Source: Protoeuglena noctilucae
Taxonomy: Eukaryota
DNA length: 64,000 nt
Direction of reading: 5' to 3'
Assembly (NCBI GenBank): GCA_958009085.1
Contig: OY253686.1
Coordinates: 682,001 to 746,000, forward strand
The translations under genes and the position numbers were made by a program. Shown here piece after piece: positions 9,469 to 32,500 of the stretch (positions are counted from its first letter, which is position 1; the number at the start of each line of letters is the position of its first letter). Under the pieces are notes generated by a model that ran no database searches, was not told the origin of the DNA, and worked only from the letters and a program-made list of their open reading frames with translations.

Positions 9469-12400
9469 CTCAACGGCAAAGGCGAGGCGGAGGCGGCTGG
9501 GGAGGGCGCTGCTGCCTTGCGCGGGCGGGGCCGACGGCGCTGCTGCTGGGGGAAGTAGCGCGCATCGCAGGCGCTTGTAGATCGCCGCGCCACGTCCTTA
9601 GAGCCGTCGGGTAGATGTGCGTACGCGCACTGGTAGGTATTTCAGCGTTTCGCTGAGTGTTAAACTGGTTGTGTACTTGCAAAACCCGGCTCGCACCGCG
9701 GAGTGCCGTATTCGAGGGACGGTGAGTTGTCGTGCGACAGACGGTGCGATCGATGCGCATAGCGTCGCGTCTCGCTCCCGAGGAGCGCGGCTTCCGGCCA
9801 ACATTGGACAGGCCGTTTCCGCATTGGCTGCGTCTTTCAGGAGCCCCACCGGATCAGGATAGCCGTCATAAGTGAGCATGAAGTGCAGAGAAGCAGTCGG
9901 CAAGGCAAGTCGCGGCGGATAGCGGGGCGCGCGCGGAGGAAGCAGCACCCCCCCACGCTGCGCTGGACTCCCGCCTGCGCAGGCGTGGAGAGCCATCTCC
10001 CGACGGGACAGCGACGCCGCCAGCCGTTAAAAAGTACAGTTTGTGCTGACGGGCCTCCAGCGTGGCCTTCTCGTGGACACGGCGGTCAAGGCGGCTCTGA
10101 TCAAGGCAGTGCTGTTTGGCGTGGTCCTCCGCTCCCTGATCTCGTGGAAGTCGTGGCGCACGCTGGCCCAGGGAAGCCCCATGGGCATCGTGCCGTGCGT
10201 GGATCCGGAATGCCACGGCATGACCATGCTCTTTGCGTGCGTCGCCCTGGCCACCGCGGAGGTAAGAGCTCCCCAGTCATGCCGCAAGGAGGTATTGGAA
10301 CGAGGCAGCAAAAGCGATTTAAGTGACAGATGATGAGTTTGTCCTTCTGCAGATGGCCCTTCTTTCGCTGGAGCTGCTTCTCCTCCTCTTCCCGGTCATG
10401 GTCGTGCGCAGGAGGACTTTGGAGGTTCTGCCCCTTCTCGACAGCGTCTACCTGCTGCTCCTCCAGTGGCGCAAGTTTTCGGGGACGAACTACATGTCGC
10501 GCCTGCGGCCCGGTAAGTGAACAACACCGGTGTTTGGGACGCGTGCGTGGCAGACCCCTGATAAAAGACTGCCTCGCCCCTGCAGGGCTTTCCGTCGAGG
10601 CCGGCATGGTTTCGATCTTCGGGCTGGTCTACGCACTCTCGTTTGCCGCGTCGCCGTCCCGTTTCGCAAAACCGGCCGGCGCTGCTTTGGCAGTGCTCGT
10701 CGCTGTGGGGCTGGTCGTGGGGCAAACCGTCGTGCAGGCGCAACTGGGCTTCAGACACGCTCCTGGTATCGTGGGCATCTTCCTGAAGCCCGTCCTTTGG
10801 GCAGTCTTCTGCTTCGCATCGTGGGTCCTCTGCAGTCCCCGCCCATGGGGCCGTCCTCACTCCAAACAGCCATGCACGAGCACCAGCAGATCGATTAGGA
10901 GAGCCCCCCCTACTGAGGCTCTGTCTTTCAGCCATGGCACTGCCGGATCGCTGGAGATTTCCATCGCTTCAACGACAGGTGCCAGGCCTGAGAGTGCAAG
11001 CCCCGTGGCATCTTCAAGGCAGCATGTCGAGGACAAGGCCCAGAAGCCGCTTAGCTGGATTGGACCCATCCGAGCTGCCATCGACGACGACATCCTCATG
11101 CTATGCGTGCTGTTTCCCATCAACTGGGCCGTCTTTGCCTTCATTGTCGCTGTGGTGTTTTGGCACCTGGCGTACGAGATTAACACGGTGAGGAAAGGAT
11201 CGACAGATGCCAAAGGCTTTTGTCTTTTACCGGAGAGACCCCTTCCGCGTGAATGCAAACTCAGGTCCTTGCACGCCACACCCGGTGTGTGCTCCACATG
11301 CCACCTCCACATGGCAGCACTGAATGGTGCCCAGACGCCCCTGGCGCTCTCGACAACGTGCTGGCAGTGCTCGTTGTCTGGGCCTTCTTCTTGGCTTTTG
11401 GGGTGGGAATCCGCATGGCCAGGTAAGCGTCGTTGCGGAAACGTCCAGAATGTGTGTGTGTGGACAGCGCCAAGTGCCCGCCTCGAGAACCTGTGCTGTC
11501 AACCTTTTCAGGGTGACGGCCTACCAGCGCGACGCCCTCCTCGAAGACGTGGTGCCCCAGGAGGTTGCGGACACCTTGTTGCACGAATTCGCTCGTCAGC
11601 AGACCAGGGGGCGGGCAAGGGAAGGTGCCCTTGGCGCCCCGGCACGCCCGGCTCTACGTGAGTGCCCAGCGTCATCCAGCATGGTATCGATGGTTGCGAG
11701 GCAGTGTGCGAAATAGTTTTTACATTTTTACACGATTGCTTCTTCTGCCTTACAGCCCTGGAAATGCACAAATCGGAGACTTTGACCAAGGAGGCGAAAC
11801 AGTCACGGATAGAAGGCAACGACTTAGAGGAGCAGCACAGTCAAAGTCACGCAAACGTCGCCGCCGACATCGCAAGTGCGCATTGAACTCAGCTTGGGGC
11901 AGCAATCCACGCGAGCGCCAAACGTGCACACACACAGCACAGGCGAAAGGCACTGAGCGTCGTTACCGGACAGATTCCGGAGACGGACGGAAGTGAAGCG
12001 GTTTCTGGTCCATACACGAGCTGCACCGACAAGGCAAGTCATCAGATATACAGCGCTCGATGCATGTGTTGCCAATCAACTTGTGCGGGGAAAGGCGACC
12101 TCGCGGCATCATTTTTGCGCAGACTGGCCTGGTGTACTTCCGCGAGCACGACGACGTCTCGCTCATGTTCAGCGACCTTGTGTCCTTCACTGAGGTGAGC
12201 GTGGTGTTTCTTAAGGACGGTGTGGGTAAACAGCATGTCGTTTCGCCCTGCAGACCAACATTCTCTCCTTCCATCTCGCACGGCAGATGGCCAGCACGAT
12301 GCCAGCCCGAGACGTCCTTCAGACCCTCCACGCCGTCTTCAGCATGCTGGACCGCGTCTCCGATGCTCTGGGTGCCCACAAGTACGAGACTGTGGGTGAG

Positions 12401-13101
12401 GCCAGCAACGACAAGTGGGGCTGATGGTAGGGGCGGACCAGAGCTTGGTTGCGGTCGTCACAATTGGTTCCAGCACTCGCGTGCAGGGGATGCTTACATT
12501 TCCGTCTCCAACCTCTTGCGCCCGGAGGAGAACCACCGACTCCAGGCCTTGCGCATGGGCGTCACGCTGGTGCGTGCCGTCAGCGCCACCCGTGTGACTC
12601 TCCCGGACGGGCGTGTTCACACCCTGCAGGCGCGCGTTGGTCTGCATACCGGCCCCGTCGCTGCCGGGGTCCTGGGACTGAAGCGACGGGTCATGAGCCT
12701 CGTGGGGGACACGGTCAACACGGCCAGCCGCATGGAGAGTGCGGGTTTGCCAGGGCACGTGCAGGCATCGCAGTTCTTCTATGACGGGCTCCCTGAGGGC
12801 GTACAAAAGGTCTTCTTCCCAAGGGACGTTGAGATCAAGGCAAGGCAGGCCTGGAAGCTTGCTGGGAGCGGCTGGATGCCAGACTGTCTGACGTGTATGG
12901 ACGGTGTCTCTACAGGCAGCGTACAATGTCTCGACCTCTCACTGACTGCTGACTGCTGGCTGGCAACGTTGTTTCTCCTCCGCCCAGGGCAAGGGACGCA
13001 TCACGGTCTGGGCAATTGACGTGCTTGGCAACGGTATGGACCTGGAGCGGTTGGGCCTCGACATCACAGCGCAGATGCTGGGGGCCCCGGCTGGGGCGTA
13101 G
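9469..13101. repeat. Left arm of a large inverted duplication (partner 14662-18339)
   Basis: About 9490-10846 is near-identical to the reverse complement of 16962-18318, and 12119-13100 to that of 14663-15644. The middle part is homologous but diverged. Confidence 0.95.
9878..13101 (+). pseudogene. Multi-TM class III nucleotidyl cyclase (guanylate-cyclase-like), left copy; two apparent in-frame stops
   Basis: Catalytic motifs are intact: SLMFSDLVSFT, KYETVGDAY, RVGLHTGPVAAGVLG, GDTVNTASRMES, EIKGKG. TAA at 10028-10030 (AAA in the right copy) and TGA at 11884-11886 interrupt the frame shared with the right copy. Confidence 0.6.
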
Positions 13102-13196
13102 ATCATTTTGCGTATTCTTGATTGAAACTTAGTGGTGTCCTTTTTGGATATGCATTTATCCAAACGCAAAAAGAGATAGTGCGGGTAACACTGTCC

Positions 13197-14508
13197 GGAT
13201 GACCGGGCCAGCTAACATGGCATGCATACGAGTACGAAGACAGCAAGCACATGTGAGGTGAAAGGGCCCTTTTGACAAAAGAGCGGGGAGGTTCTGATTT
13301 TGAGGGGCGTTGACCGTCAGCTTGCCGACGGCCGAGACGAGCAGGTAGTGCAGAGCTACCCCAAAAGCGCCCCAACGCCTGTGGCAAGTTTGACAATCCG
13401 CTTGAGTCTTGGCTCAAACAGCCGCCGATCGAGTGAACGCGCGTTCTATACCTCTGGGAGCCCGAAAGACGTCAGCACATATAGCCACAGACACAGTCAG
13501 TGGGAGCTTCACATAGGCAGCAGCTGCCCATTGGCAATTTCAGACACACGACCGTGCAGCTGGTGCAAGCTCCTGCTGATGCACACACAAGCCACAACAC
13601 TTAACACATGCTGGCAGAGACGCAGTCAACTCAGGACATTTACCCAGTTAAGCCTGACCCACCCAGTCCGTTCGCTGGTTTGCAACTTGAACACGTATTG
13701 GATCCAATGCAAACTTTGCATATTGTCTTGACATATACTGAATCGCGCAAAGNNNNNNNNNNNNNNNNNNNNNNNNNNNNNNNNNNNNNNNNNNNNNNNN
13801 NNNNNNNNNNNNNNNNNNNNNNNNNNNNNNNNNNNNNNNNNNNNNNNNNNNNNNNNNNNNNNNNNNNNNNNNNNNNNNNNNNNNNNNNNNNNNNNNNNNN
13901 NNNNNNNNNNNNNNNNNNNNNNNNNNNNNNNNNNNNNNNNNNNNNNNNNNNNGGATGACCGGGCCAGCTAACATGGCATGCATACGAGTACGAAGACAGC
14001 AAGCACATGTGAGGTGAAAGGGCCCTTTTGACAAAAGAGCGGGGAGGTTCTGATTTTGAGGGGCGTTGACCGTCAGCTTGCCGACGGCCGAGACGAGCAG
14101 GTAGTGCAGAGCTACCCCAAAAGCGCCCCAACGCCTGTGGCAAGTTTGACAATCCGCTTGAGTCTTGGCTCAAACAGCCGCCGATCGAGTGAACGCGCGT
14201 TCTATACCTCTGGGAGCCCGAAAGACGTCAGCACATATAGCCACAGACACAGTCAGTGGGAGCTTCACATAGGCAGCAGCTGCCCATTGGCAATTTCAGA
14301 CACACGACCGTGCAGCTGGTGCAAGCTCCTGCTGATGCACACACAAGCCACAACACTTAACACATGCTGGCAGAGACGCAGTCAACTCAGGACATTTACC
14401 CAGTTAAGCCTGACCCACCCAGTCCGTTCGCTGGTTTGCAACTTGAACACGTATTGGATCCAATGCAAACTTTGCATATTGTCTTGACATATACTGAATC
14501 GCGCAAAG
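13197..14508. repeat. 556-bp direct duplicate (13197-13752 and 13953-14508) flanking a 200-N scaffold gap (13753-13952); probable unmerged contig overlap
   Basis: Both copies run from GGATGACCGGGCC to AATCGCGCAAAG, look identical, and abut the gap exactly. Confidence 0.9.
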
Positions 14509-14661
14509 GAAAAAAGCGAACACACGATATGACCGATAAGCATAAGAAGTCAACCACAACAGCAGGCATTACATAGATGAGAGAGATGGCAACAGGTCCA
14601 TGCACACAAGCTGCAGCGAAGCGCGGAAACTGTGACTTCAGCTGGAACAAGCTGGAAATGT

Positions 14662-17600
14662 TTACGCCCCAGCCGGGGCCCCCAGCATCTGCGCTGTGAT
14701 GTCGAGGCCCAACCGCTCCAGGTCCATACCGTTGCCAAGCACGTCAATTGCCCAGACCGTGATGCGTCCCTTGCCCTGGGCGGAGGAGAAACAACGTTGC
14801 CAGCCAGCAGTCAGCAGTCAGTGAGAGGTCGAGACATTGTACGCTGCCTGTAGAGACACCGTCCATACACGTCAGACAGTCTGGCATCCAGCCGCTCCCA
14901 GCAAGCTTCCAGGCCTGCCTTGCCTTGATCTCAACGTCCCTTGGGAAGAAGACCTTTTGTACGCCCTCAGGGAGCCCGTCATAGAAGAACTGCGATGCCT
15001 GCACGTGCCCTGGCAAACCCGCACTCTCCATGCGGCTGGCCGTGTTGACCGTGTCCCCCACGAGGCTCATGACCCGTCGCTTCAGTCCCAGGACCCCGGC
15101 AGCGACGGGGCCGGTATGCAGACCAACGCGCGCCTGCAGGGTGTGAACACGCCCGTCCGGGAGAGTCACACGGGTGGCGCTGACGGCACGCACCAGCGTG
15201 ACGCCCATGCGCAAGGCCTGGAGTCGGTGGTTCTCCTCCGGGCGCAAGAGGTTGGAGACGGAAATGTAAGCATCCCCTGCACGCGAGTGCTGGAACCAAT
15301 TGTGACGACCGCAACCAAGCTCTGGTCCGCCCCTACCATCAGCCCCACTTGTCGTTGCTGGCCTCACCCACAGTCTCGTACTTGTGGGCACCCAGAGCAT
15401 CGGAGACGCGGTCCAGCATGCTGAAGACGGCGTGGAGGGTCTGAAGGACGTCTCGGGCTGGCATCGTGCTGGCCATCTGCCGTGCGAGATGGAAGGAGAG
15501 AATGTTGGTCTGCAGGGCGAAACGACATGCTGTTTACCCACACCGTCCTTAAGAAACACCACGCTCACCTCAGTGAAGGACACAAGGTCGCTGAACATGA
15601 GCGAGACGTCGTCGTGCTCGCGGAAGTACACCAGGCCAGTCTGCCGAGAAGGGAAGGACACGTCCTGTAGTCTGCGGCTGCAAGCATTAAGCTTTGATAG
15701 GCGCATGACGCAAAAAAATTTTTACCTGTTCCTCGTGGCCCACGAATGGAACCGAGACAACCCCGCCCTGGGGCTCATTAAGTTGCTCAACACGCTGGGG
15801 CTCCTCAGCATGATTGGCCTGGCCAGCATTGACACTCATGGCCTTTGACCTGCGCCGCGCACTCGTGCCTCCCGGCCCGGCATCGACGTGCACGCGTGCA
15901 AGCTGCATTTCACTGTGCGACCGTGGGACTGCAGAGAGGTCGCTTGCAACTCGCGCATGGTCATTAGATGCCAGGCGACCTTCAGCTGGTCTTGCATGCT
16001 TTTCAAGAGATGGAGGATTCCGCACCGGCAGAGCTGCACGTGTTGAAAGATGTTGCAGTTGGTTTATCAGCGATCACCAGCACCACGTCAGACGCTACCC
16101 CCGCAGCCTTCTCCACTCACGGTAAGACGCGGTCCGAGCCGTGCGTGCCAGGGCGCCAAGGACCCCTCCCCCTGCACCCCCAGTCTGCTGACGAGCGAAC
16201 TCGTGCACCAAGGTGTCCGCAACCTCCTTGGGCACCACGTCGGCGAGGAGGGTGTCGCGTTGAATTGCCGTCACCCTGGAAAGGCTGACAGCACAGGTTC
16301 TCGAGGCGGGCACTTGGCGCTGTCCACACACATTCTGGACGTTTCCGCAACGACGCTTACCTGGCCATGCGAATTCCCACCCCAAAAGCCAAGAAGAAGG
16401 CCCAGACGACGAGGGTAGCCATAACGTTGTCGAGAGCGCCAGGGGGGTCTGGGCACCAAGCAGTGCTATTCCAAGGTATTTTGTGCTGCTGTACTCCCAG
16501 AACGCACAGTGCGTGTCTCAAAATTTTCTGCAGTTGCAATGTGCAACATGTTGCTGAGTTACACAACTTTCATCTTGTGCGAACTCTTTGCAGGTTTCCT
16601 ACCTCGTTTGTCTCCGATGTCTGCATCCAAACGACCACCGCGATGATGAAAGCGAAAGTGAGCCACTTGATGGGGAACAGCACGCGTAGCATGAGGATGT
16701 CGTCTTCGATGGCAGCTTGGATGCGTCCAATCCAGCTAAATGGCTTCTGGGCCTTGTCCTCGACGTGCTGCCTTGAAGACGCCAAGGGGCTTGCACTCTC
16801 GGGTTTGGCACCTGCTGGTGAGGCGATGGAAACTTCCAGAGACCGGGACCTGGCAGTGCCTTGGCCCAAAGACAGCGCCTCGGTAGGGGAAGATCTCGAT
16901 AAGGAGATTTGGCCATGCCCCGTCGGTAAGCTGCTGCTTGTGTGATGGTGAGGATGAGCGGATGGGCGGGGACTGCAGAGGACCCACGATGCGAAGCAGA
17001 AGACTGCCCAAAGGACGGGCTTCAGGAAGATGCCCACGATACCAGGAGCGTGTCTGAAGCCCAGTTGCGCCTGCACGACGGTTTGCCCCACGACCAGCCC
17101 CACAGCGACGAGCACTGCCAAAGCAGCGCCGGCCGGTTTTGCGAAACGGGACGGCGACGCGGCAAACGAGAGTGCGTAGACCAGCCCGAAGATCGAAACC
17201 ATGCCGGCCTCGACGGAAAGCCCTGCAGGGGCGAGGCAGTCTTTTATCAGGGGTCTGCCACGCACGCGTCCCAAACACCGGTGTTGTTCACTTACCGGGC
17301 CGCAAGCGCGACATGTAGTTCGTCCCCGAAAACTTGCGCCACTGGAGGAGCAGCAGGTAGACGCTGTCGAGAAGGGGCAGAACCTCCAAAGTCCTCCTGC
17401 GCACGACCATGACCGGGAAGAGGAGGAGAAGCAGCTCCAGCGAAAGAAGGGCCATCTGCAGAAGGACAAACTCATCATCTGTCACTTAAATCGCTTTTGC
17501 TGCCTCGTTCCAATACCTCCTTGCGGCATGACTGGGGAGCTCTTACCTCCGCGGTGGCCAGGGCGACGCACGCAAAGAGCATGGTCATGCCGTGGCATTC

Positions 17601-17930: not shown

Positions 17931-18339
17931 GCTCACTTATGACGGCTATCCTGATCCGGTGGGGCTCCTGAAAGACGCAGCCAATGCGGAAACGGCCTGT
18001 CCAATGTTGGCCGGAAGCCGCGCTCCTCGGGAGCGAGACGCGACGCTATGCGCATCGATCGCACCGTCTGTCGCACGACAACTCACCGTCCCTCGAATAC
18101 GGCACTCCGCGGTGCGAGCCGGGTTTTGCAAGTACACAACCAGTTTAACACTCAGCGAAACGCTGAAATACCTACCAGTGCGCGAACGCACATCTACCCG
18201 ACGGCTCTAAGGACGTGGCGCGGCGATCTACAAGCGCCTGCGATGCGCGCTACTTCCCCCAGCAGCAGCGCCGTCGGCCCCGCCCGCGCAAGGCAGCAGC
18301 GCCCTCCCCAGCCGCCTCTGCGTCACCCTTGCCCTTGAG
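14662..18339. repeat. Right arm of the inverted duplication (partner 9469-13101)
   Basis: The ORF track gives mirrored, near-identical peptides, e.g. 10043..10333+ vs 17475..17765- and 12060..13019+ vs 14744..15706-. Confidence 0.95.
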
Positions 18340-21300
18340 CTGCTCGCTGTCTATCTTGTCGTCCAATCCTATGGCCTTGCTTGCCGGCCTGTCCCTCGTT
18401 CTGGTCCCCTCGGCAAAGCCAAGCGAGCCACCCTCCACCGTCGCTGCCCTGGACCGCTCCTCGCCTTGCGGGCCTGCTCTACCCAGGCCAACCTTCTCCG
18501 CCGGCCACGACTGGACCCCCTCGCTCGATTGCTTCCCCGGCATCACCGCGTCCTGCTCCCCAGCTTCCCAGCCTGGGTCTACAGAGTCCTCGCAATCGGC
18601 AGGGGGTACGGAGAGATGCCTCTGCAAAGACGGCGACAGGTCGGAGTATGGGGACAGCCAGTAACACCGACGGACACATCGAGGCTGTCGCCAGTCCCGT
18701 CCCAGCATCCCATGCTGACACCCCAGGGTGGACCACTCGCCTGTGTCACATGGGGCCGCAGCAACGTTGCACGATTCTGCATCAGCTGGTACAGCGCCAC
18801 GGGATTGATTCGTTGCCAGGACAGCTGCGCCCCCCGGCCGATCTGCTCGAGCGTCTGCAGCGAGAAGGCCGCTCCCTTGCCCAGGCCCTGCTCCAGTGCT
18901 TGCAGCGAGAAGGCCGCCCCCTTGCCCAGCCCTTGCTCCAGCACTTGCAGGGACCGATGGGCCTGCTTGGCCACCACGCGCACCACCCGGTCCGTCCCCG
19001 CCAGGATGGCTTCGATCCTGGGGCGCGCGGTTGCGATGGACAGAGTTGCACCCGCACAGGCGTGCCAGAGCAGGTATCGACGGCCAGCTCTTAACACAAC
19101 ATGCCCATCTGTCGACCCATACACCTGCTTCGTCACACCTGAGCTTCTTGAACGGCGCAAGGTTGGCCTGGCCCAGGAAGGCTCTGCAGCTGCTCTGAGA
19201 CGACGAGCCGACCTCGAGCACCTGCACGCAGCCGTAGTCGCCTTCGCCCCACACGCCGATGAAGTGCCTCTGCCAGTCAGCAAGCGTCATCCAGAACTCC
19301 CCGTCGTTGCTGTCCAGCTTGGGCTGCAGCGCGGCCTTCACGGCCGGGTACAAGTCCCACTCGGGGGACTCGTCGCTCCATGCGCCTGCGGCAGGAGGCG
19401 CGGGGCAGCACAAGTGAGCGTGCACACCGGCCCGCATCGACTTCCTTGCCCTGCTGCAGTCGCTGGAGGGCCCAGGACTGCCCCTCGCATATCCTCGCCT
19501 TTCCACTCCGTGGCACCCCAGGGGTTGCGTGTGCGTAAGAGGCGGAGCTTGTGCTCGGGGAATTCTGCCAGCTCGATGAGCGAGTACGCATGGGCCTGCA
19601 CGATCCCCTCCTTGACATCTGCGGGATCGAGATGCTCGACACGGATTATGCAAGACACGGAAAGCCACGGTTGCTCGGCGTGGCGTCAGAGCAGGCCACG
19701 TGTCGCACCGCTGTCACTGACGCCCGCACTCGAGGCGCTGAGGAGCCAGCCCTGCTCATCCGCGTGCTTCATGAACGCCCACAGCTCGTCCTCCGAGACC
19801 TTGCGGGTCTCCGGGTGAGAGCTAAACATGGCCTTGACGCCGGCGTCGGCGCCCATGGCCTGGCTGGCGTGCACGCCCTGCACCACGCCGCTCGTGATCC
19901 ACCACTGCCCGTCCTTGCACCACAAGTAGTGGCCCCGAGCATCCCCGGTCAGGCACGCCAGCGCCACCAGCGGCAGGCCCCCGTCCAGGAGGCTGTAGCG
20001 CCCGACGAACTGCGGAGGAAGCGGCTAGGGGCAGGCTCAGAAGAAGCGCAGGTGGTGCGCACAGCGGCCTGGGTGGCCAGAGCTTCACTCGGTGCCGTCA
20101 GTACCTTGGCCAGCGCTTTCTCCAGCAGGGGCACCCAGAGCTCGTTCTGGTTGTTGGTGGGGCGCGCAAAGCAGGGTGTACGATCCTTGGCCGTCACGGG
20201 CACATAGTCGTCCACGCACACGTTGTGCCATGCCCCTCCCTGAGTATCGAAGAGCCTGCGCAGGCACCACGCGCCGATTCGCATCTCCTTTCTATTGCCC
20301 TTTGGCGGCATGGCCGGCTAGGTGGAGGGTTGCCACATGGCATCCCACTCAGGTTACCGGAACGTGGCCTTGCCCACCGCCGCATCCGTCTCCTCCTCCA
20401 CCAGCAGAGCCCGCACCATGCCCGGGAACTCAGCAGCCAGGCACGCCACCGAGGACAGGAACCAGCAGTCACCCAGAGACCCCTGGCATATGTCTGCGGG
20501 CTCTACCTCGTCGAACATCACTGCGGGGGCGGGCGGAGGCGCAAAGTGGGACCCGGCGTTCCCCGCAACAGCCTGGGCTGAAATCGCTGTCACCAGCGGC
20601 TCTCGAGGGAAAAATACTTTGTTCTCGTCGCCTTTAGCCCGGCACAATCTCGGTTGGGCCCGACCGCGTCTCACCGGGTGGACGCTTGAAGAGGGCCAGG
20701 TCCGTCAGCCGCTCCCACTCCCAATCCTGGCCCCACGCAACGGCCAGGGGCTCTCGCCCGTCAGCCGGGTCCCCGCTGATGCTCGCGTCCACCGGCGGGA
20801 ACTCCTTGTCGCTGAACATCTCGACGCCCCGCAACGCCTGCGTCACCGTGTTGGGGGCGCGGCGCCAGCGCCCAGCCCGCACACGCTCGCCCGGCTCGGG
20901 CGAGGGGAACCGGACGTTGAAGACCAGGCGCTTGCCCTCCGCAATCTCGGCGAATTCCTCAAAGACCCCGCCCCGCCTCTGGTGCACAAAGACCTGCAGG
21001 GATGCAGGCAGGGCAGGCCGTCGTTGCCCAGGCCATGCCCAGGCCCACATCGCAGTGCCCGGGCGGCTCGCTGCAAATCGACGCTCGCCTCCATGGCCGT
21101 CTCGGACGTCCTCGCGTTCCGCAGCAGCCACATGTGACCTACGTAGGACGTAACTTCCATGGCCTCCCCTGCGCACACAATGGCATGGCGGTGCGTCTTC
21201 TTGAGAGCAGACGAGCGTGAATGCACGGCGACAATGCATAATCTGGTATGCAGTCCACGAGGCGCGCTTTGCGCTTCGCTCGCCACCTGGCCGCAGGGTC

Positions 21301-21674
21301 CCGAACGAAGCGTCCTCCGTGCCATCGTAGAAGACGAAGACGACCAACAGGACCTCGTTTGTCGAGTTCCGGAAATCCAACTCCACGGGTGTAAACTGCG
21401 GGAGGGCCAATGCTTCTGTCACCCCGCGGCCGGGGGGCGTCAAATGCGACGCCCCGTGCGCACGACGCCCAGGCGCATCGTGCAGATATCGCGCCCGCTC
21501 TTGCCATAAGCGTGGTGTGCATTGTAAAATCAAGCGACAGAAACTGACAGATTGCCATTCGTCGCGCACAGGTGACGAGAGGGCACTGCAGAAAACACTC
21601 GCCGGCTCAAGCGCCTCGCTCCGCGGGACGTCCGGCACATACAGCACCCCGTCATGTTCCACATAAAACTCCAT
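18250..21674 (-). CDS. Calpain-family cysteine protease (CysPc) with N-terminal VHL-beta-like domain and C-terminal RRRCCWGK tail; multi-exon
   Basis: FSDKEFPP, DICQGSLGDCWFLSSVA (Cys), VCVDDYVP, ELWVPLLEKALAK, ALACLTG, HAYS (His), RNPWG (Asn), DGEFWM. Upstream exons read PVELDFRNST..FYDG..TLRPG..TSYVGHMWLLR. Confidence 0.9.
18843..18950 (-). repeat. 45-bp coding tandem repeat (about 2.5 units) in the calpain C-terminal region
   Basis: TGCAG recurs at 18856, 18901 and 18946. Encodes LQVLEQGLGKGAAFS / LQALEQGLGKGAAFS / LQTLEQIGRGAQLS. Confidence 0.85.
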
Positions 21675-24900: not shown

Positions 24901-27502
24901 TAAAGCACGTCCACATCCATGGCCCTGAAGGGGGTGCGGGGAAGGCGCAGGTTTAATCAAGCGCATCGGCAAGACGCGGCAGCGCGTGGGCGCCGACTCC
25001 GCATCCTCACCGCTGGAGTTGGAGTGTAATGACGAGGCCCGTCAGCATCGTGGCCATGACCTTGTGACCGCCCATGGTCGGGGCTTCCCAGGTCGTGGGC
25101 GCACCCATCCGCGACGATTTCAGCCGCGTGGCACGCTCCTGCCGTCGGGCCGCCTGGGCCGTGGAGGGGTGGAACGGGGACTGCAGGAGTGAAAGAGAGG
25201 GCAGAGAAGGTCAAGCAGCCAGTAGCGGGGCGCGGCGCACTCCACAAGACCCGGCGGCTGCCACTGCGTCACGTCGCGCACACCACCCCAGCGCCGTCTC
25301 ACCTCCCCCAGGTCCCGCGAGCTCCCCGGCGTCTCCGCGGACGACTCGTTGGAGGCGCGCGTCCCCCGCGACCCCTGCAGCGCGCGCGTCACGGCCACGA
25401 CCACGCGTCGGTGTGCCTCGGCGGCCTCCGCGGCCGTCACCACGCGGCCCGGGTACGTGTGGCCCAGGACCACCCCGGCGGCTGCGAGGGCCTCGGGCGG
25501 GGCGTCCCAGGGCTCGAAAGCGAGCTCGGAGGGGAGCCCCGCCAGCTCGGGCACCCACGCGCGGAGGAAGGCAGCGTCGGGGTCGATGCGCCGGGACGCG
25601 GCCGCCACGTCGAGGGGCTCGGCGAGGGGCGTGCCGTCCCTGAGGCACCCGGCCGCCGCGGCCCAGGTGACGAGGCACGTGGCCACCTCGGCGCCCACCA
25701 GGCGCTCCCACACGTGCATCAGGCCCCACTGCCACGGCAGGCCCAGCGCCTTGACCAGGAAGGCCGCCGCCAGCTCGTGCAGCGGCTCCGACAGCCACCC
25801 CACCGAGAGCAGGCACCGCATGGCCGCGTCCACCAGGGGGTACCCCGTGCGGCCGGACGCCCATGCCTGGAAGGCGTCGGCGTTGAAGCCCCAGTGCCCG
25901 GCCGCGATGTGCGTCAGCCTTAGCGCGTCGTCCGGCCAGTGGTGGCAGATGTACCTGCGGGGGTATCGTGCGGGCTGAGACGCCCGACAGGGAAGCGTCA
26001 CAACAGAGGCACCAAACGCACCGCAAGCGACCCTCACTTTGACCATTCCCTGGCGCTGAGGCTGGCCAGGACGGCCCTGCAGGCTCCCGCAAGCCGCGAC
26101 GTGGGCTTGGCCGGCCCGACCAGTGCCTTCATCGCCCGCCACAGGTCCCCGGGGCTGATCTCTCCCGCCGCGACGTGCGGGGACATCATGGCGGCCACTG
26201 CGGGTGAGAGCGCAGGCGCAGGGTTCCTGCCGTGGACCGTCACCTCGCAAGCTCCTCAGCCAGCCCGTGCCCCCAAAGTCGGGTACTCACTGAGGTTGAC
26301 ATCGTGCGACCGCGCGTCCCCGTCCCGTGCGTCCCTCATCCGCTGGACCAGCACGGCGAGCACCTTGTGGGCGTTGCGCTCGCCCGGCCGCCAGTGCCCT
26401 GCCAGCCCCTGGCACACGCCCTCCTCGGCCGGCGACAGCAGCGACCCGGCTGCCCCGACCGCCAGCGACCCCGTCGCCTCCCGCAGCGGCTCGAGGCGCG
26501 CCACGTCCACCGCGTCCCCCAAGCACCACTGCCGCAGCTCCGACGGCAGGGGCCCCAGGCGGCGCGGGGCCGGCAGGGACCCCGGGAGCTCCCGCCCGCA
26601 GTAGGCGTCGAGGACGTTTTGGAAGGCCTTGAACCGCGTGTACGGCTTGCCCTGGTCCAGGATGGCCCACGGCCCGACCATGACGGCCCCGTCCATCTCC
26701 TGCACCAGGACGCCCATGTCTGACAGGTCCTGCCAGACCTCCGTGTCGACCTCGGCCGAGGGGGGGTCGTAGGCGCGGTTGTAGAAGACGGCGTCCACGC
26801 TCAAAATCTGAGGGAGAAAAGACATGCGGTGCTTCCAAAAGAGCAAGTCCGGCAGGCGCAGCGCCACTGGCTTAGGGCGCTCGTCCCTCACCCGGCAGAG
26901 TCGTGTGAGGGCGCAGGCGTGCGAGTCGTCCTGCAGCACGACCAGGTCGGCGCCCAGGGCCTTGAGGTCCAGGGCCAGGCTGCACAGGGACTTGCGCAAC
27001 CACCACCGGAGGCACATGCCGGGGGCAAAGCTGACGTGGTCGTCGGAACTCGCCACGTCCTCGGGGACGACGACGTAGACGGGAATGACTGGGGAGGTAC
27101 AGGCACGCGCGTCTCGCAAGGACATGGCAATGACAATCGTTCAGCAACATCTCATGGGGAGCACGGGGCCTCCAGACACTCACCCGTGTCGGCGACGAGG
27201 GCGGCAGCGTGCAGGGCGGGGTTGTCCGCGAGTCGCAGGTCCTGGCGCAGCCACACCACCGCACGGCTGAATAGGCGGCTGGGGCCCTGCCCCCGCGGCG
27301 TGGGCCGCCCTCCACCCTCCGCCGTCTCGCTCGGCTGAGGGCTGTGCCGCCCGCCACGTCGGCTGCCGTTCGGGGCGCTGCCGGAGTGGTGGGACAGCTG
27401 GACGCCCGACCCCGCCCGGCGCCGTCGAGGCGAGTCGCGGTGCCCCGGCTGCCGAAACACATTCGAGGGGTGCGCCGGCGACGGGTCCTTGTCCACGCTC
27501 AT
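21974..27502 (-). CDS. Plant-type cryptochrome-like protein (photolyase homology region plus very long low-complexity C-terminal extension); multi-exon
   Basis: VVWLRQDLRLADNPALHAA, PGMCLRWWLRKSL, VFYNRAYDP, WRPGE, SPHVAAGEIS, AWASGRTGYPLVDAAMR, LGLPWQWG, WVPELAGLP..EPWDAP..LAAAGVVLGHTYP. C-terminal exons are traceable to TGA at 21974-21976. The 5' end is uncertain. Confidence 0.85.
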
Positions 27503-28739
27503 CTTCGCTGGACTCGCCCCCGAGCCACTCCCCGTATAACGCGGCGCCCGGTGCGGGGGCCGCGGCCCATGGTCCTGCCGCAGCAGCGCAGGTCAGCGAG
27601 GTTCAGGGCAGCGAGGTTCCACTGCAGCCCGAGCTCCGCCGCTTCGCCAGCGCAAGCACACGAGTAGTACACTAGTAGTCTAACCTTTTCCCGCCTGCCG
27701 AGCTGCATGCCGCCCATTCCGCGAGGCGCGGCGACGGAACTGCAGAGGGAGGGGGTTTCCTCGCGTTCGCGCATCAACCACAGCGTATCTGCCCCGAGGC
27801 CCCATATCAACTCCTGCTCAGTTCATCAAACCACCAGAATCACGGGCCACACGGCGCACCTGGGCGGCGTGGCCAAAAAGACACGCGAGCTCGACTTGCG
27901 CCGCAATGCCTCCTTGTGCGAGACATCTTGGCCAGTGACGTGGTCTGCGGACGAGGCTTCGATGTCGTCCGGGAGTGCTAACGCCGCGAGGGAGGCAAGG
28001 GTGCTGTGTGCGCTCCGCGGGGTCGCCTGGCCAGCGGACGCCGGCGCGCATTGACTGTCGCCGCTGGCGGTGGAAAAGGGTGGCGTCATGGAAGCGGAAC
28101 GGCTCACCAGAGTCAGACATGCGCTTCACACCACCTCGGACCCGACGGCGATCCCGGGCGTGGCTCGCCGACTGCGACCGGCAGTTAAGTTCCGCTTTCG
28201 CGCTCGACATCGCAGCGCGTCGTCTATGAGCTCGGCTGCCGCGCCAGTGTCGGATAGGACCGTGGCCGGCGCGGGAGCGGCGGAGTCCGCGGCATCGCAC
28301 CAGACAGAGGAGAAGCGCACGCATGCCCTTGACGAGGCCCTCGCCGCCGGGCTTCCCTCCCTCGGCCCCTGCCATGGAGTCCCCCAACCCGAGCATGGCG
28401 TTGCCGCGCGCCTACGGCCTCGGCAGGCCACGCAAGCGACGAGGAGGTCCCACGCATGGGCGAGGGGGCCATGCAAAGATTCGACAAGGTCTCTATCAAA
28501 ACAGAACAAGCAAAGGTCGCAAACCAAACATGTTGCCACATCGTAGCGACGGACAATGCGCGGAGTGAAAATTGTTAGACGCTTTTTTGGGTACACCCCG
28601 GGGTCCCACCTGAAAAGGTCCTTTTCTGCAAGGAGGACAAATGGCGCTGTAAATGGCCATTCTATGAAGCGTCAGGCTCCGTGACATCGCCATCGCCCGG
28701 GATCGCGCCACCTGCGCCACGCTTGCCGCGCGCTGCCAG

Positions 28740-29554: not shown

Positions 29555-32500
29555 CTAAGGCGCCGCGGTGGCCTTGGGACCCCCGTCCCCCTCGTCGCCC
29601 GCCGCCAGCTCCACGTCGGCGTCGCGGGAGAAGAGGACCAGCTCGGGGACGCCGGGGAGGGCCTCGGTGGCGAGCATGCCGAAGTCCTCGGGGCCTATGC
29701 GGCACCACGTGGGCTGGCGGGACAGGCCGGGCGGGCCCCCCGCGTCCCCCAGCCCCGCCTCCTCCACCAGCTGCGCCCACCGCACGTCGCACACGTGCCC
29801 CGCGTGCGCCACGGCGGAGTACCCCATCGCGTGGATCTCCCGCAGCACCGCCACGGGGTCCTCGACGCCACGGATGGCCGCCAGGTCCGGGTGGAGCTCC
29901 ACGAGCACGGCGTGGGGGCGGTCCTCGCGCAAGACGCGGGCGGCGCCGCGGATCACCGACGCCTCGTGCCCGAATGCGGAGATGCGCAGGGCCCCGACGC
30001 GCAGGCCGGAGCGGCGCGCGTCCGCCAGCACGCGCTCCAGCGTCGTCCGGGGCACCGACCGCAGGCAGGGGCCCAGGTGCGCCGCGCCGACCGTGTCGGT
30101 CCCCGGGACGGCCGAGTAGCCCTCCGAGTAGGCCAGGGCGTCCCACTCCTCGGGCACCGCCGCCCGCACGTCCCCGACGGACTCGCCCGGCCCCGTCGCC
30201 AGCCCCGGCCGCGAGTGCGGCGCCCGCATCACGTCACGCACGCGCTCGGTGCGCGAGGCGCGCGGGTCTGCCTCCGCCCGGCGCTCCGCCTCGCGCCGCG
30301 CCTCCCGCACCGCCGCCTCGACGCTGTCCGACACCTCCGGGAGGCTCGGCGACAGGACGCGGTCCAGGAGGGAGCGGCGGGCCGCAGCTGCCGCATCCGA
30401 CCCCGACTCCCCCGCGCTCGCGTCAGCGTCGCCCCCCGACGCCCGCCGGTGGCGCGCCAGCAGGAAACTGCCCCGTTGCACGCACACTCGCTCGTCAAGC
30501 TCGGCGTCGCCCAGCGCAGCCTCGTGCACCTGCAGCCGATCCCCGAACTGGTTGCGCCGGGCCGCGGCCGTAAGGAGGTCGAGGTTGTCCCAGGAGGCCT
30601 CGAAGGCGTGGGCCGCGAACCCCTTGGACGCCGCCGTCAGCGACAGGTAGCCCAGCCCGGCCCCCACGTCCACGAGCGCCACGCCCCGCGCGTCCAGCGT
30701 GTAGTCCGACCGGTACCCCTCAAGCGCATCCACCAGCACGTCCGCCACGGTCGGCTCCCGGTTTCGGGCCAGCACGGGCTGCCAGTGGCCCCACGTGGCC
30801 AGGTCGGCCGAGACGTCCGTGTGGACGTACACCTCGCCATGCCCCATCAGCCGGACCATGACGTCGAAGGGCGTCGAGGACGGCACCGTCACAGGAAAGG
30901 CCGCCAGCCCCGCCTGCGGGTCCGCGTCCCCCGCCTGGGCCTCGTAGCGGTGCAGGTCAACGTTGAAGGCCGCCAGGTCCGCCTCGGGGCCCGACAGGGG
31001 CGCGTGGTCGTAGTGCCGCACCGCGTCCTCCGCCTTGTGCACCCACGTCGAGGGGTTGACGGCCGCGGCGACCTGGTTGGCCGCCTTCCACGACCCCGCG
31101 AAGTAGTGCACCACGGCGATCCCCGACGCGTCGGCCGCGATGCCGTCGCGGCCCTTGTGGTAGCCGAACGTCACGCGGGGGTACAGGCGTACCGCCCACT
31201 CGCGCGCCGCATCGCCCTCCGCGCCCTCCTCGGACTGCCGCAGCGCGTGCGCCAGGACCTTGTCCGTCCACACCCCGGGGCCCGTGCGCTGCGCACGCGG
31301 CGACGGGATGATCTCGGGCGACTGCTGCCCGAGCGTACAAACATCGCGTCTCCTGCATGGCCCCGCGCTCCCCCGCTCACCTCAAGCGTGTCGCGGTCCT
31401 CCCCCACGTTCAGGGGCCGCTGATAGTTGGCGGCGATCCAGTCGCACAGGTCCCGCAGCACCGGGTGCCCGGGGGCCGCCATGAAGAACCACTGCTCGAG
31501 CTGCATCTTGCGGGCGTACCCCCGGTTCCACGTGATGTCCCACGTGGGGAACGCCGACTCGTAGCCGACGACCAGGGCGTCCCCAGGGGAGATGAGGGAC
31601 TCCAGGGGCACGCGGCACTCGGTGTCGATGTCCGCGTAGGCGCCCCCGTGCTTGAGGACGACCATGTAGCGGAAGAAGTCGGCGCGCTCGACGTCCTTCT
31701 CGAGACCCTGGAAGGCCTCGAGGTACTCGGGGAACTCGGAAGCCACAAAGTCGAGGCAGTCGTCGTCCGTGTAGAAGTGCACCTGCGGCGACGGGCCGGC
31801 CGCGAGGCGTCGAAACCCGCTCGGCAGCACGCAGCTCGCTCCCCAGCACACGACCGCGGGGGTCCCCGCTCACCTCCCACCCCTTGTTGAAGGTCCGCCA
31901 CGACTCCTGCAGGGCCTTGAAGTGCGAGGGCACGCGGCTCGACCGGTACGTTTGGTGCAGCACGCGCGGGATGCGGTACCCTGCCTCGGCCCACTCCGAT
32001 AACGGCGTGGGCTCCACCGCCGGCTCCAGCCCCCCGGGGGCCATTGCGGGCACCACGCGGGGCGGGCGCTGCCCCGGCTGAGGTGCCGAGGAGCCACCCA
32101 AGCGGCTGGCGCCATTCACCAGCAGGATCACGAGGGCCAGGGCCCACAGGGCGCGGACCCACGGTATGCGGGCGCTGCGTGTCACGAAGCGCCACAAGCT
32201 CCTGGGGCTGGCGGACCCCGAATGGGACACGCGCCGATGGCTCACGGGGAGCTGGCCCTTCGCGACCGGGAACGCGGAGGCGGCCGACACGGGCTCGCTT
32301 TTGCCCCCGGCCACGAGGCTCTCGAAGTCCGCGTACGAGACATGCCGCGAGTGCAGGCCCGCGCTGATTCTGGGGCCGGAAGGCGAAGCAAGGGTCAGTC
32401 CAGCACGCGTGCCGACGGCAGCACGCCTCGCATACCAATAAGCCTCACCTCGATCGTTGCCGCGTGTGAGTGGCCCGGCGCGCCGAGAAGGTCGCTGGAG

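Follow-up and report, generated by a model that had tools for sequence, protein, structure and literature searches.

A predicted VHL-beta-type module in front of a calpain core in an intron-rich gene of Protoeuglena noctilucae

We examined a stretch of 64,000 nucleotides of contig OY253686.1 from Protoeuglena noctilucae (GenBank assembly GCA_958009085.1, positions 682,001 to 746,000 of the forward strand; hereafter the window) and identified on its minus strand a predicted gene, 21674-18250, of 11 exons and 736 residues. In this gene a module resembling the beta domain of the von Hippel-Lindau protein (VHL) appears to stand directly before the catalytic core of a calpain-type protease. The splice chain of all exons described here is a prediction made from the sequence, and all coordinates of the gene and its exons refer to the minus strand. 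We consider it probable that the architecture is as described, with a VHL-beta-type module and a calpain in one protein of ~736 residues, and very probable that the front domain is truly homologous to VHL beta. The presence of the full VHL fold, a seven-stranded beta sandwich, and of any ligand is something we infer, and the most likely role of the module would be that of a docking domain.

The calpain core, the VHL-like module and their link

The protease part was recognized in a Pfam search in which eight exon pieces of the gene were submitted separately against 24,736 families. Four of the eight (E5, E6, E8 and E9) matched the calpain family Peptidase_C2 (PF00648), at 31-38 bits where the cut-off is 23.8 bits, and did so in collinear order over profile positions 42-291. 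E5 (20358..20520), which holds the catalytic Cys in the motif LGDCWF, scored 37.8 bits over profile positions 42-80, and E6 (20105..20255) scored 37.5 bits over positions 98-140. E8 (19499..19618), with the catalytic His (HAYS) and Asn (RNPWG), scored 37.7 bits over positions 209-248, and E9 (19139..19385), with the end of the core (WSD... and DGEFWM), scored 31.1 bits over positions 250-291. The intervening E7 (19709..20009) comprises core sequence with a lineage-specific insert and was placed by its frame and its flanking exons; neither E7 nor E4, submitted alone, found a match in Pfam.

In the numbering of the model the catalytic triad consists of Cys212, His408 and Asn430. In a search of the PDB the three motifs in which these residues lie were aligned to their counterparts in calpain-3, which upholds an earlier reading of this DNA from its letters alone (hereafter the original prediction), according to which the Cys-His-Asn triad is intact. 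Neither calpain domain III (C2L) nor a penta-EF-hand was found after the core, where the open reading frames (ORFs) over 18253-19713 match only the end of PF00648, and it is on the strength of this that we would class the predicted protein as a non-classical calpain with a complete triad.

The VHL-like signal is centered on E3 (21089..21168), an exon of 27 residues with the motif SYVGHMW that would correspond to strands 4-5 of the VHL beta fold. E3 alone matches the Pfam VHL beta family (PF01847) at 20.5 bits over profile positions 46-65 of 82, and its E-value of 5e-4 against the 24,736 families exceeds chance for one window. When E3 was compared with the PDB by phmmer at E-values of up to 10, all 24 distinct sequences found were human pVHL (E-values 0.28-0.53). 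Along pVHL residues 109-126, 9 of the 18 aligned residues are identical in E3, including S111, Y112, G114, H115 and W117 in pVHL numbering. The original prediction had claimed by eye that S111, H115 and W117 are kept, and the tool alignment of E3 to pVHL in the PDB bears this out.

On either side of E3, the remaining strands would be supplied by E2 and E4. E2 (21287..21395; 36 residues) represents the VHL-like first half, approximately strands 1-3, with the motifs F.N, DG and TL.PG, while the front of E4 (20675..20993) carries the last VHL-like strands (VFVHQ... and LVFNVRFP). E3 begins three residues before profile position 46, and with the 36 residues of E2 placed before it the start of E2 falls at about the start of the 82-position PF01847 model, of which E2 covers the first ~42 positions; by eye, the likeness to pVHL continues collinearly through E2 and the front of E4. 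The only Atlas feature match listed for E2 is a cluster of 64-residue proteins, 17% of whose members carry PF01847, with a score of 0.78 that by the calibration of the tool is a lead only. Atlas gave no match for E4, and a search of NCBIfam returned nothing relevant for the VHL signal of E2 and E4. Two exons upstream of the protease had been proposed originally, and both were located as claimed (E2 at 21395-21287 and E3 at 21168-~21089). The 118-nucleotide, phase-1 GT-AG intron predicted between them, whose junction rebuilds a Pro-Gly codon pair, yields exactly the peptide that had been quoted.

The exon that joins the two parts of the protein is E4, a single open segment of 106 residues holding both the putative closing strands of the VHL sandwich and, after a linker of ~30 residues, the first ~40 residues of the calpain core (MFSDKEFPP...). 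Because E5 starts at position 42 of the Peptidase_C2 profile, positions 1-41 must lie in E4; and because E4 carries the last VHL-like strands as well as the start of the core, the VHL-like part and the calpain are physically linked in the model. The first Met of E4 is residue 59 of the exon, so that the start codon for its conserved front half has to come from exons farther upstream. E3 can be joined in frame to E4 only by a GC-AG intron (donor 21089) or by a weak GT donor at 21083, either of which would set the 3' end of E3, and E4 then runs on into the core. On this predicted splicing, the in-frame join to the calpain that had been proposed is available.

Only ~30 residues separate the last beta strand from the start of the calpain, which leaves no room for an Elongin-binding alpha domain. 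No BC-box-like Leu...Cys motif, as would be required for Elongin C binding, was seen in these residues, in agreement with the earlier statement that no alpha domain is evident. As it has no alpha domain, the protein is predicted not to be a ubiquitin-ligase adaptor.

Further evidence on the front domain comes from its relatives. A HMMER search with the unspliced ORF P0001 over 1.84 billion representatives returned five proteins at an E-value of 0.001 or less, one of which (P0002) is the same locus. A second, P0003, is an E4-like ORF (E-value 3.7e-15) with 44% identity over the whole exon and a likeness that ends at the exon end. A third, P0006, is an E2-like ORF (E-value 9.6e-4; 42% identity) whose likeness likewise stops at the exon end and which shares 15 invariant columns with E2, including both Phe, Asn10 and Asp-Gly. 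P0003 and P0006 each derive from one contig of 1,397 nucleotides, probably the same one. When residues 117-126 in the tail of P0006 were back-translated to shifted frames, they fitted the E3 core at 9 of 10 positions, as compared with 10 of 10 for P0001 of the window and 6 for three unrelated proteins; among 2,000 shuffles of P0006, four reached 9 and none reached 10. This fit suggests that in the relative, too, an exon with SY.GH.W may lie between the E2-like exon and the E4-like one. Another of the five proteins, P0005, is an fn3/cadherin protein and was set aside as a chance match.

Possible ligand and alternative readings

We propose that the VHL-like module most likely serves for docking: it would present to the protease a substrate or partner by way of a peptide that contains proline, and possibly hydroxyproline, a role that would be equivalent to that of WW or MIT domains in other calpains. 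In this proposal the gene would be a nuclear gene of a GC-rich and intron-rich microalga, and its product a non-classical calpain of ~736 residues bearing at its N-terminus a VHL-beta-type sandwich of ~90 residues, without an Elongin-binding alpha domain.

Whether such a module could read hydroxyproline depends on its pocket, which in the structures of pVHL with HIF is formed by W88, Y98, S111, H115 and W117. The Ser (S111) and the His (H115) hydrogen-bond the 4-hydroxyl group of hydroxyproline, and their retention raises the prospect of hydroxyproline reading. The original prediction also had W88 and Y98 replaced by Phe. The equivalents here are Phe44 and Phe55 (or Ser54), so that this part of the claim stands in a by-eye alignment and is less definite for the second position; both Phe are invariant in the relative P0006. 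On account of the two Phe replacements we rate hydroxyproline-specific binding no higher than possible but doubtful.

A stronger contender, to which we would give somewhat less than an even chance, is that the module is a true relative of VHL beta that does not read hydroxyproline. Its function would then be peptide docking in general, or autoinhibition, with a plain proline-rich or other ligand, and the kept Ser, His and Trp would serve the fold. The Phe residues assigned by eye to the positions of W88 and Y98 are in keeping with this, as the Tyr hydroxyl is removed, and a scan of 110 ORFs from the 9.4-33 kb part of the window revealed no prolyl hydroxylase gene. However, the Ser and His that bond the 4-hydroxyl in pVHL are both kept, together with Trp117, and a Phe in place of Trp or Tyr preserves the aromatic walls of the pocket.

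The furthest-reaching version of our proposal is that the VHL fold was an old, pre-animal reader of hydroxyproline that has here been wired straight to a calpain, such that a prolyl 4-hydroxylase mark, reflecting oxygen, 2-oxoglutarate or iron status, might trigger limited proteolysis of a target without ubiquitin or the proteasome. We regard this as unlikely, although less so than the two readings considered next.

Several observations weigh against a VHL-type module fused to the calpain. The sole formal VHL match is that of E3, which falls 0.5 bit below the Pfam cut-off of 21, and a six-frame scan of 401 bacterial genomes (one phylum) with PF01847 gave four chance-level matches at E-values of 0.01 or less per genome, the best at 21.7 bits; a VHL match of ~20 bits is meaningful only in context and is unremarkable alone across gigabases. 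For E2, both as it stands and in a 41-residue version, for E4, both whole and cut to its first 48 residues, and for the unspliced P0001, Pfam gave no VHL match at E-values of up to 10, and no pVHL was found in the PDB with E2, E4 or the two-sequence profiles A1 and A2. Neither the three word-index searches nor the search of 1.84 billion representatives returned a spliced protein of the gene or of a relative. The model requires four GC-AG introns, with GC donors at 4 of its 10 introns, and the by-eye assignment of Phe to the W88 and Y98 positions belongs on the same side. Separately, the top PDB match of the A2 profile, ribosomal protein bL19 at an E-value of 0.07, was dismissed as chance.

Were the likeness to VHL fortuitous or convergent, the first 120 residues of the protein would constitute a beta-rich extension of the calpain that is specific to the lineage and unrelated to VHL. 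Just 20 residues score, E2 and E4 have nothing in Pfam or the PDB even as profiles, chance matches of 17-22 bits arise in bacterial six-frame scans, and shuffled sequences reach an Atlas score in the range of the 0.78 of E2 one third of the time. We nonetheless find this explanation improbable. What gives the E3 match its weight is its position, in frame within a coding exon and immediately 5' of the calpain; moreover, two exons lead by two different methods (Pfam and Atlas) to the same rare family, and the matched residues are the functional ones.

Least likely of all is an error in the 5' gene model. In that case E1-E3 would either form a small gene of their own or go untranslated, and translation of the calpain would begin at the Met of E4 (MFSDKEF). 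In favor of this, the Met coincides precisely with the beginning of the calpain core and is retained in P0003, and introns 1 and 3 of the inferred chain need GC donors. Against it, the 58 residues of E4 before this Met are conserved in frame with P0003, holding 20 of the 44 columns that are invariant between the two, and lack a start codon of their own; the GC content at third codon positions (GC3) is 0.89 for the whole of E4; and the phases of E2 and E3 match, with a YGCAG acceptor at each.

Gene model and neighboring features

Returning to the preferred reading of a single spliced gene, the locus has a GC content of 0.64-0.66 locally and is without a bacterial-type long gene; on the minus strand, short open segments follow one another in a chain, delimited by GT/GC...YGCAG signals. 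In all nine of the exons E1-E9, read in frame, GC3 is 0.75-0.93 and the GC content at second codon positions (GC2) 0.29-0.50, and no such periodicity is seen in the eight introns among them or in the 200 nucleotides upstream of the ATG. GC3 is 0.81 in E2, 0.85 in E3 and 0.93 in E7, and in E9 the periodicity extends to ~19150. Intron lengths are 90-207 nucleotides. The YGCAG motif is found at 9 of the 10 acceptors of the model and occurs 24 times in the 3,701 nucleotides examined, which makes it consistent with the model without being very specific. The GC donor of the GC-AG intron behind E8 is forced, because position 248 of the Peptidase_C2 profile, at the end of E8, continues at position 250 in E9. 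GC-AG introns are common in GC-rich algae: according to a preprint they make up 14-17% of introns in pelagophytes and are tied to high GC. The GC content, the many short introns and the frequent GC-AG introns fit a GC-rich microalga.

E1 (21603..21674) starts at the ATG at 21674-21672 (context GCCATGG) and comprises 24 codons with a GC3 of 0.75 and a GC2 of 0.29. Its donor is GC (GCGAGT), the unspliced reading through its boundary (ORF P0001) is open too, and this boundary is the least certain in the 5' part of the gene; the intron behind it is flat, with GC contents of 0.65, 0.59 and 0.61 by codon position. The ORF that reads through from E1 to E2 had only a chance match to TetR in Pfam (E-value 0.095). 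The fifth protein of the HMMER search, P0004 (48 residues; from a 927-nucleotide contig of another assembly), is a variant of the E1 region that stays identical slightly beyond the proposed GC donor, diverges within the next residues and soon stops. It does not match the spliced E1-E2 form and may represent an allele, the end of a contig or a variant of assembly.

Behind the core, exon 10 (18741..19017) encodes a C-terminal extension with a tandem repeat of 15 residues, has a periodicity of 0.8/0.43/0.9 and contains no Pfam domain. The repeat corresponds to two copies of a 45-nucleotide unit at 18856-18950 (minus strand) with 90% matches. In the putative last exon (18250..18621) the frame is open to a TAG stop that ends at 18250. 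As its periodicity is weak, this exon and its stop are uncertain, and it could be partly 3' untranslated region.

Additional searches for relatives were made with single exons. A search for longer proteins with E4 returned only the unspliced ORF P0001, and with E7 it returned nothing, leaving E7 with no relative in the database; with E5 it returned the unspliced P0008 and a distant calpain-15 (P0009) without VHL annotation. A metagenome scan with E4 gave nothing. The same kind of scan with the alignment A2 gave three loci (L001-L003) that were rejected as spurious, being antisense to a bacterial ORF of 379 residues, and a scan of genome contigs gave one chance match of 16 residues (L004). There was no match in a scan of viral contigs, and no paralog of the gene was found in the window.

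Directly upstream of the gene, the segment 22000-24300 has a GC content of 0.77, and both of its strands carry overlapping long frames with much Pro, Gly and Arg, none with a Pfam family; the segment probably represents low-complexity or non-coding DNA in which frames stay open because of the GC content. Farther upstream on the minus strand lie a photolyase/cryptochrome gene (25123-27592; PF03441 at 148 bits, PF00875 at 70.5 and 30.8 bits), which contains introns, since it is split over several ORFs, and an ORF (31174-31869) with the DXD sugar-binding region of a glycosyltransferase (PF04488, 39.8 bits). On the other side of the gene, at 11000-16800, is a large palindrome with arms at 12119-13100 and 14663-15644 that are 982 nucleotides long and 100% complementary, with further flanking arms at 82-92%. 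Each perfect arm holds an ORF with the catalytic domain of an adenylate/guanylate cyclase (PF00211, ~88 bits), and the GC content falls there to 0.52-0.58. The palindrome may have arisen by a recent inverted duplication or be an artefact of the assembly.

Comparison with known systems

VHL is commonly regarded as an innovation of animals, bound up with HIF and ubiquitin ligation. The beta domain of human pVHL (PF01847; PDB 1LM8 and 1LQB) is the closest counterpart to the algal E3 over pVHL residues 109-126, with half of the aligned positions identical. In contrast to human pVHL, however, the algal protein would have no alpha domain or BC box and would thus be no Elongin C/Cul2 adaptor, it is predicted to be fused to a protease, and it has Phe, in the by-eye alignment, at the positions of W88 and Y98. 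Its host also differs: PMC9618697 presents the HIF/PHD/VHL pathway as specific to animals, and VHL homologs in a choanoflagellate and in fungi as disputed.

Among calpains, VHL is not one of the 24 partner domains of the CysPc core that are given for 44 eukaryotes in Table 1 of Zhao et al. 2012 (PMC3563603). The word 'Hippel' is absent from the main text of that paper and from a 2026 calpain review, and our literature searches, which covered main texts, found no published description of a VHL-calpain architecture. The plan of the predicted protein is nevertheless the same as that of the WW-CysPc, MIT-CysPc and Zn-CysPc calpains described in that study, in which a CysPc core with an intact triad is combined with one N-terminal module that binds peptides or partners, and the WW domain of WW-CysPc also binds proline-rich peptides. 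An algal fusion of a VHL-type reader with a protease would show a wider and older use of the fold. Such a fusion, with reader and enzyme in one polypeptide, would offer a simple and testable system in which to ask what non-animal VHL domains bind, and could also address whether prolyl hydroxylation directs proteolysis directly.

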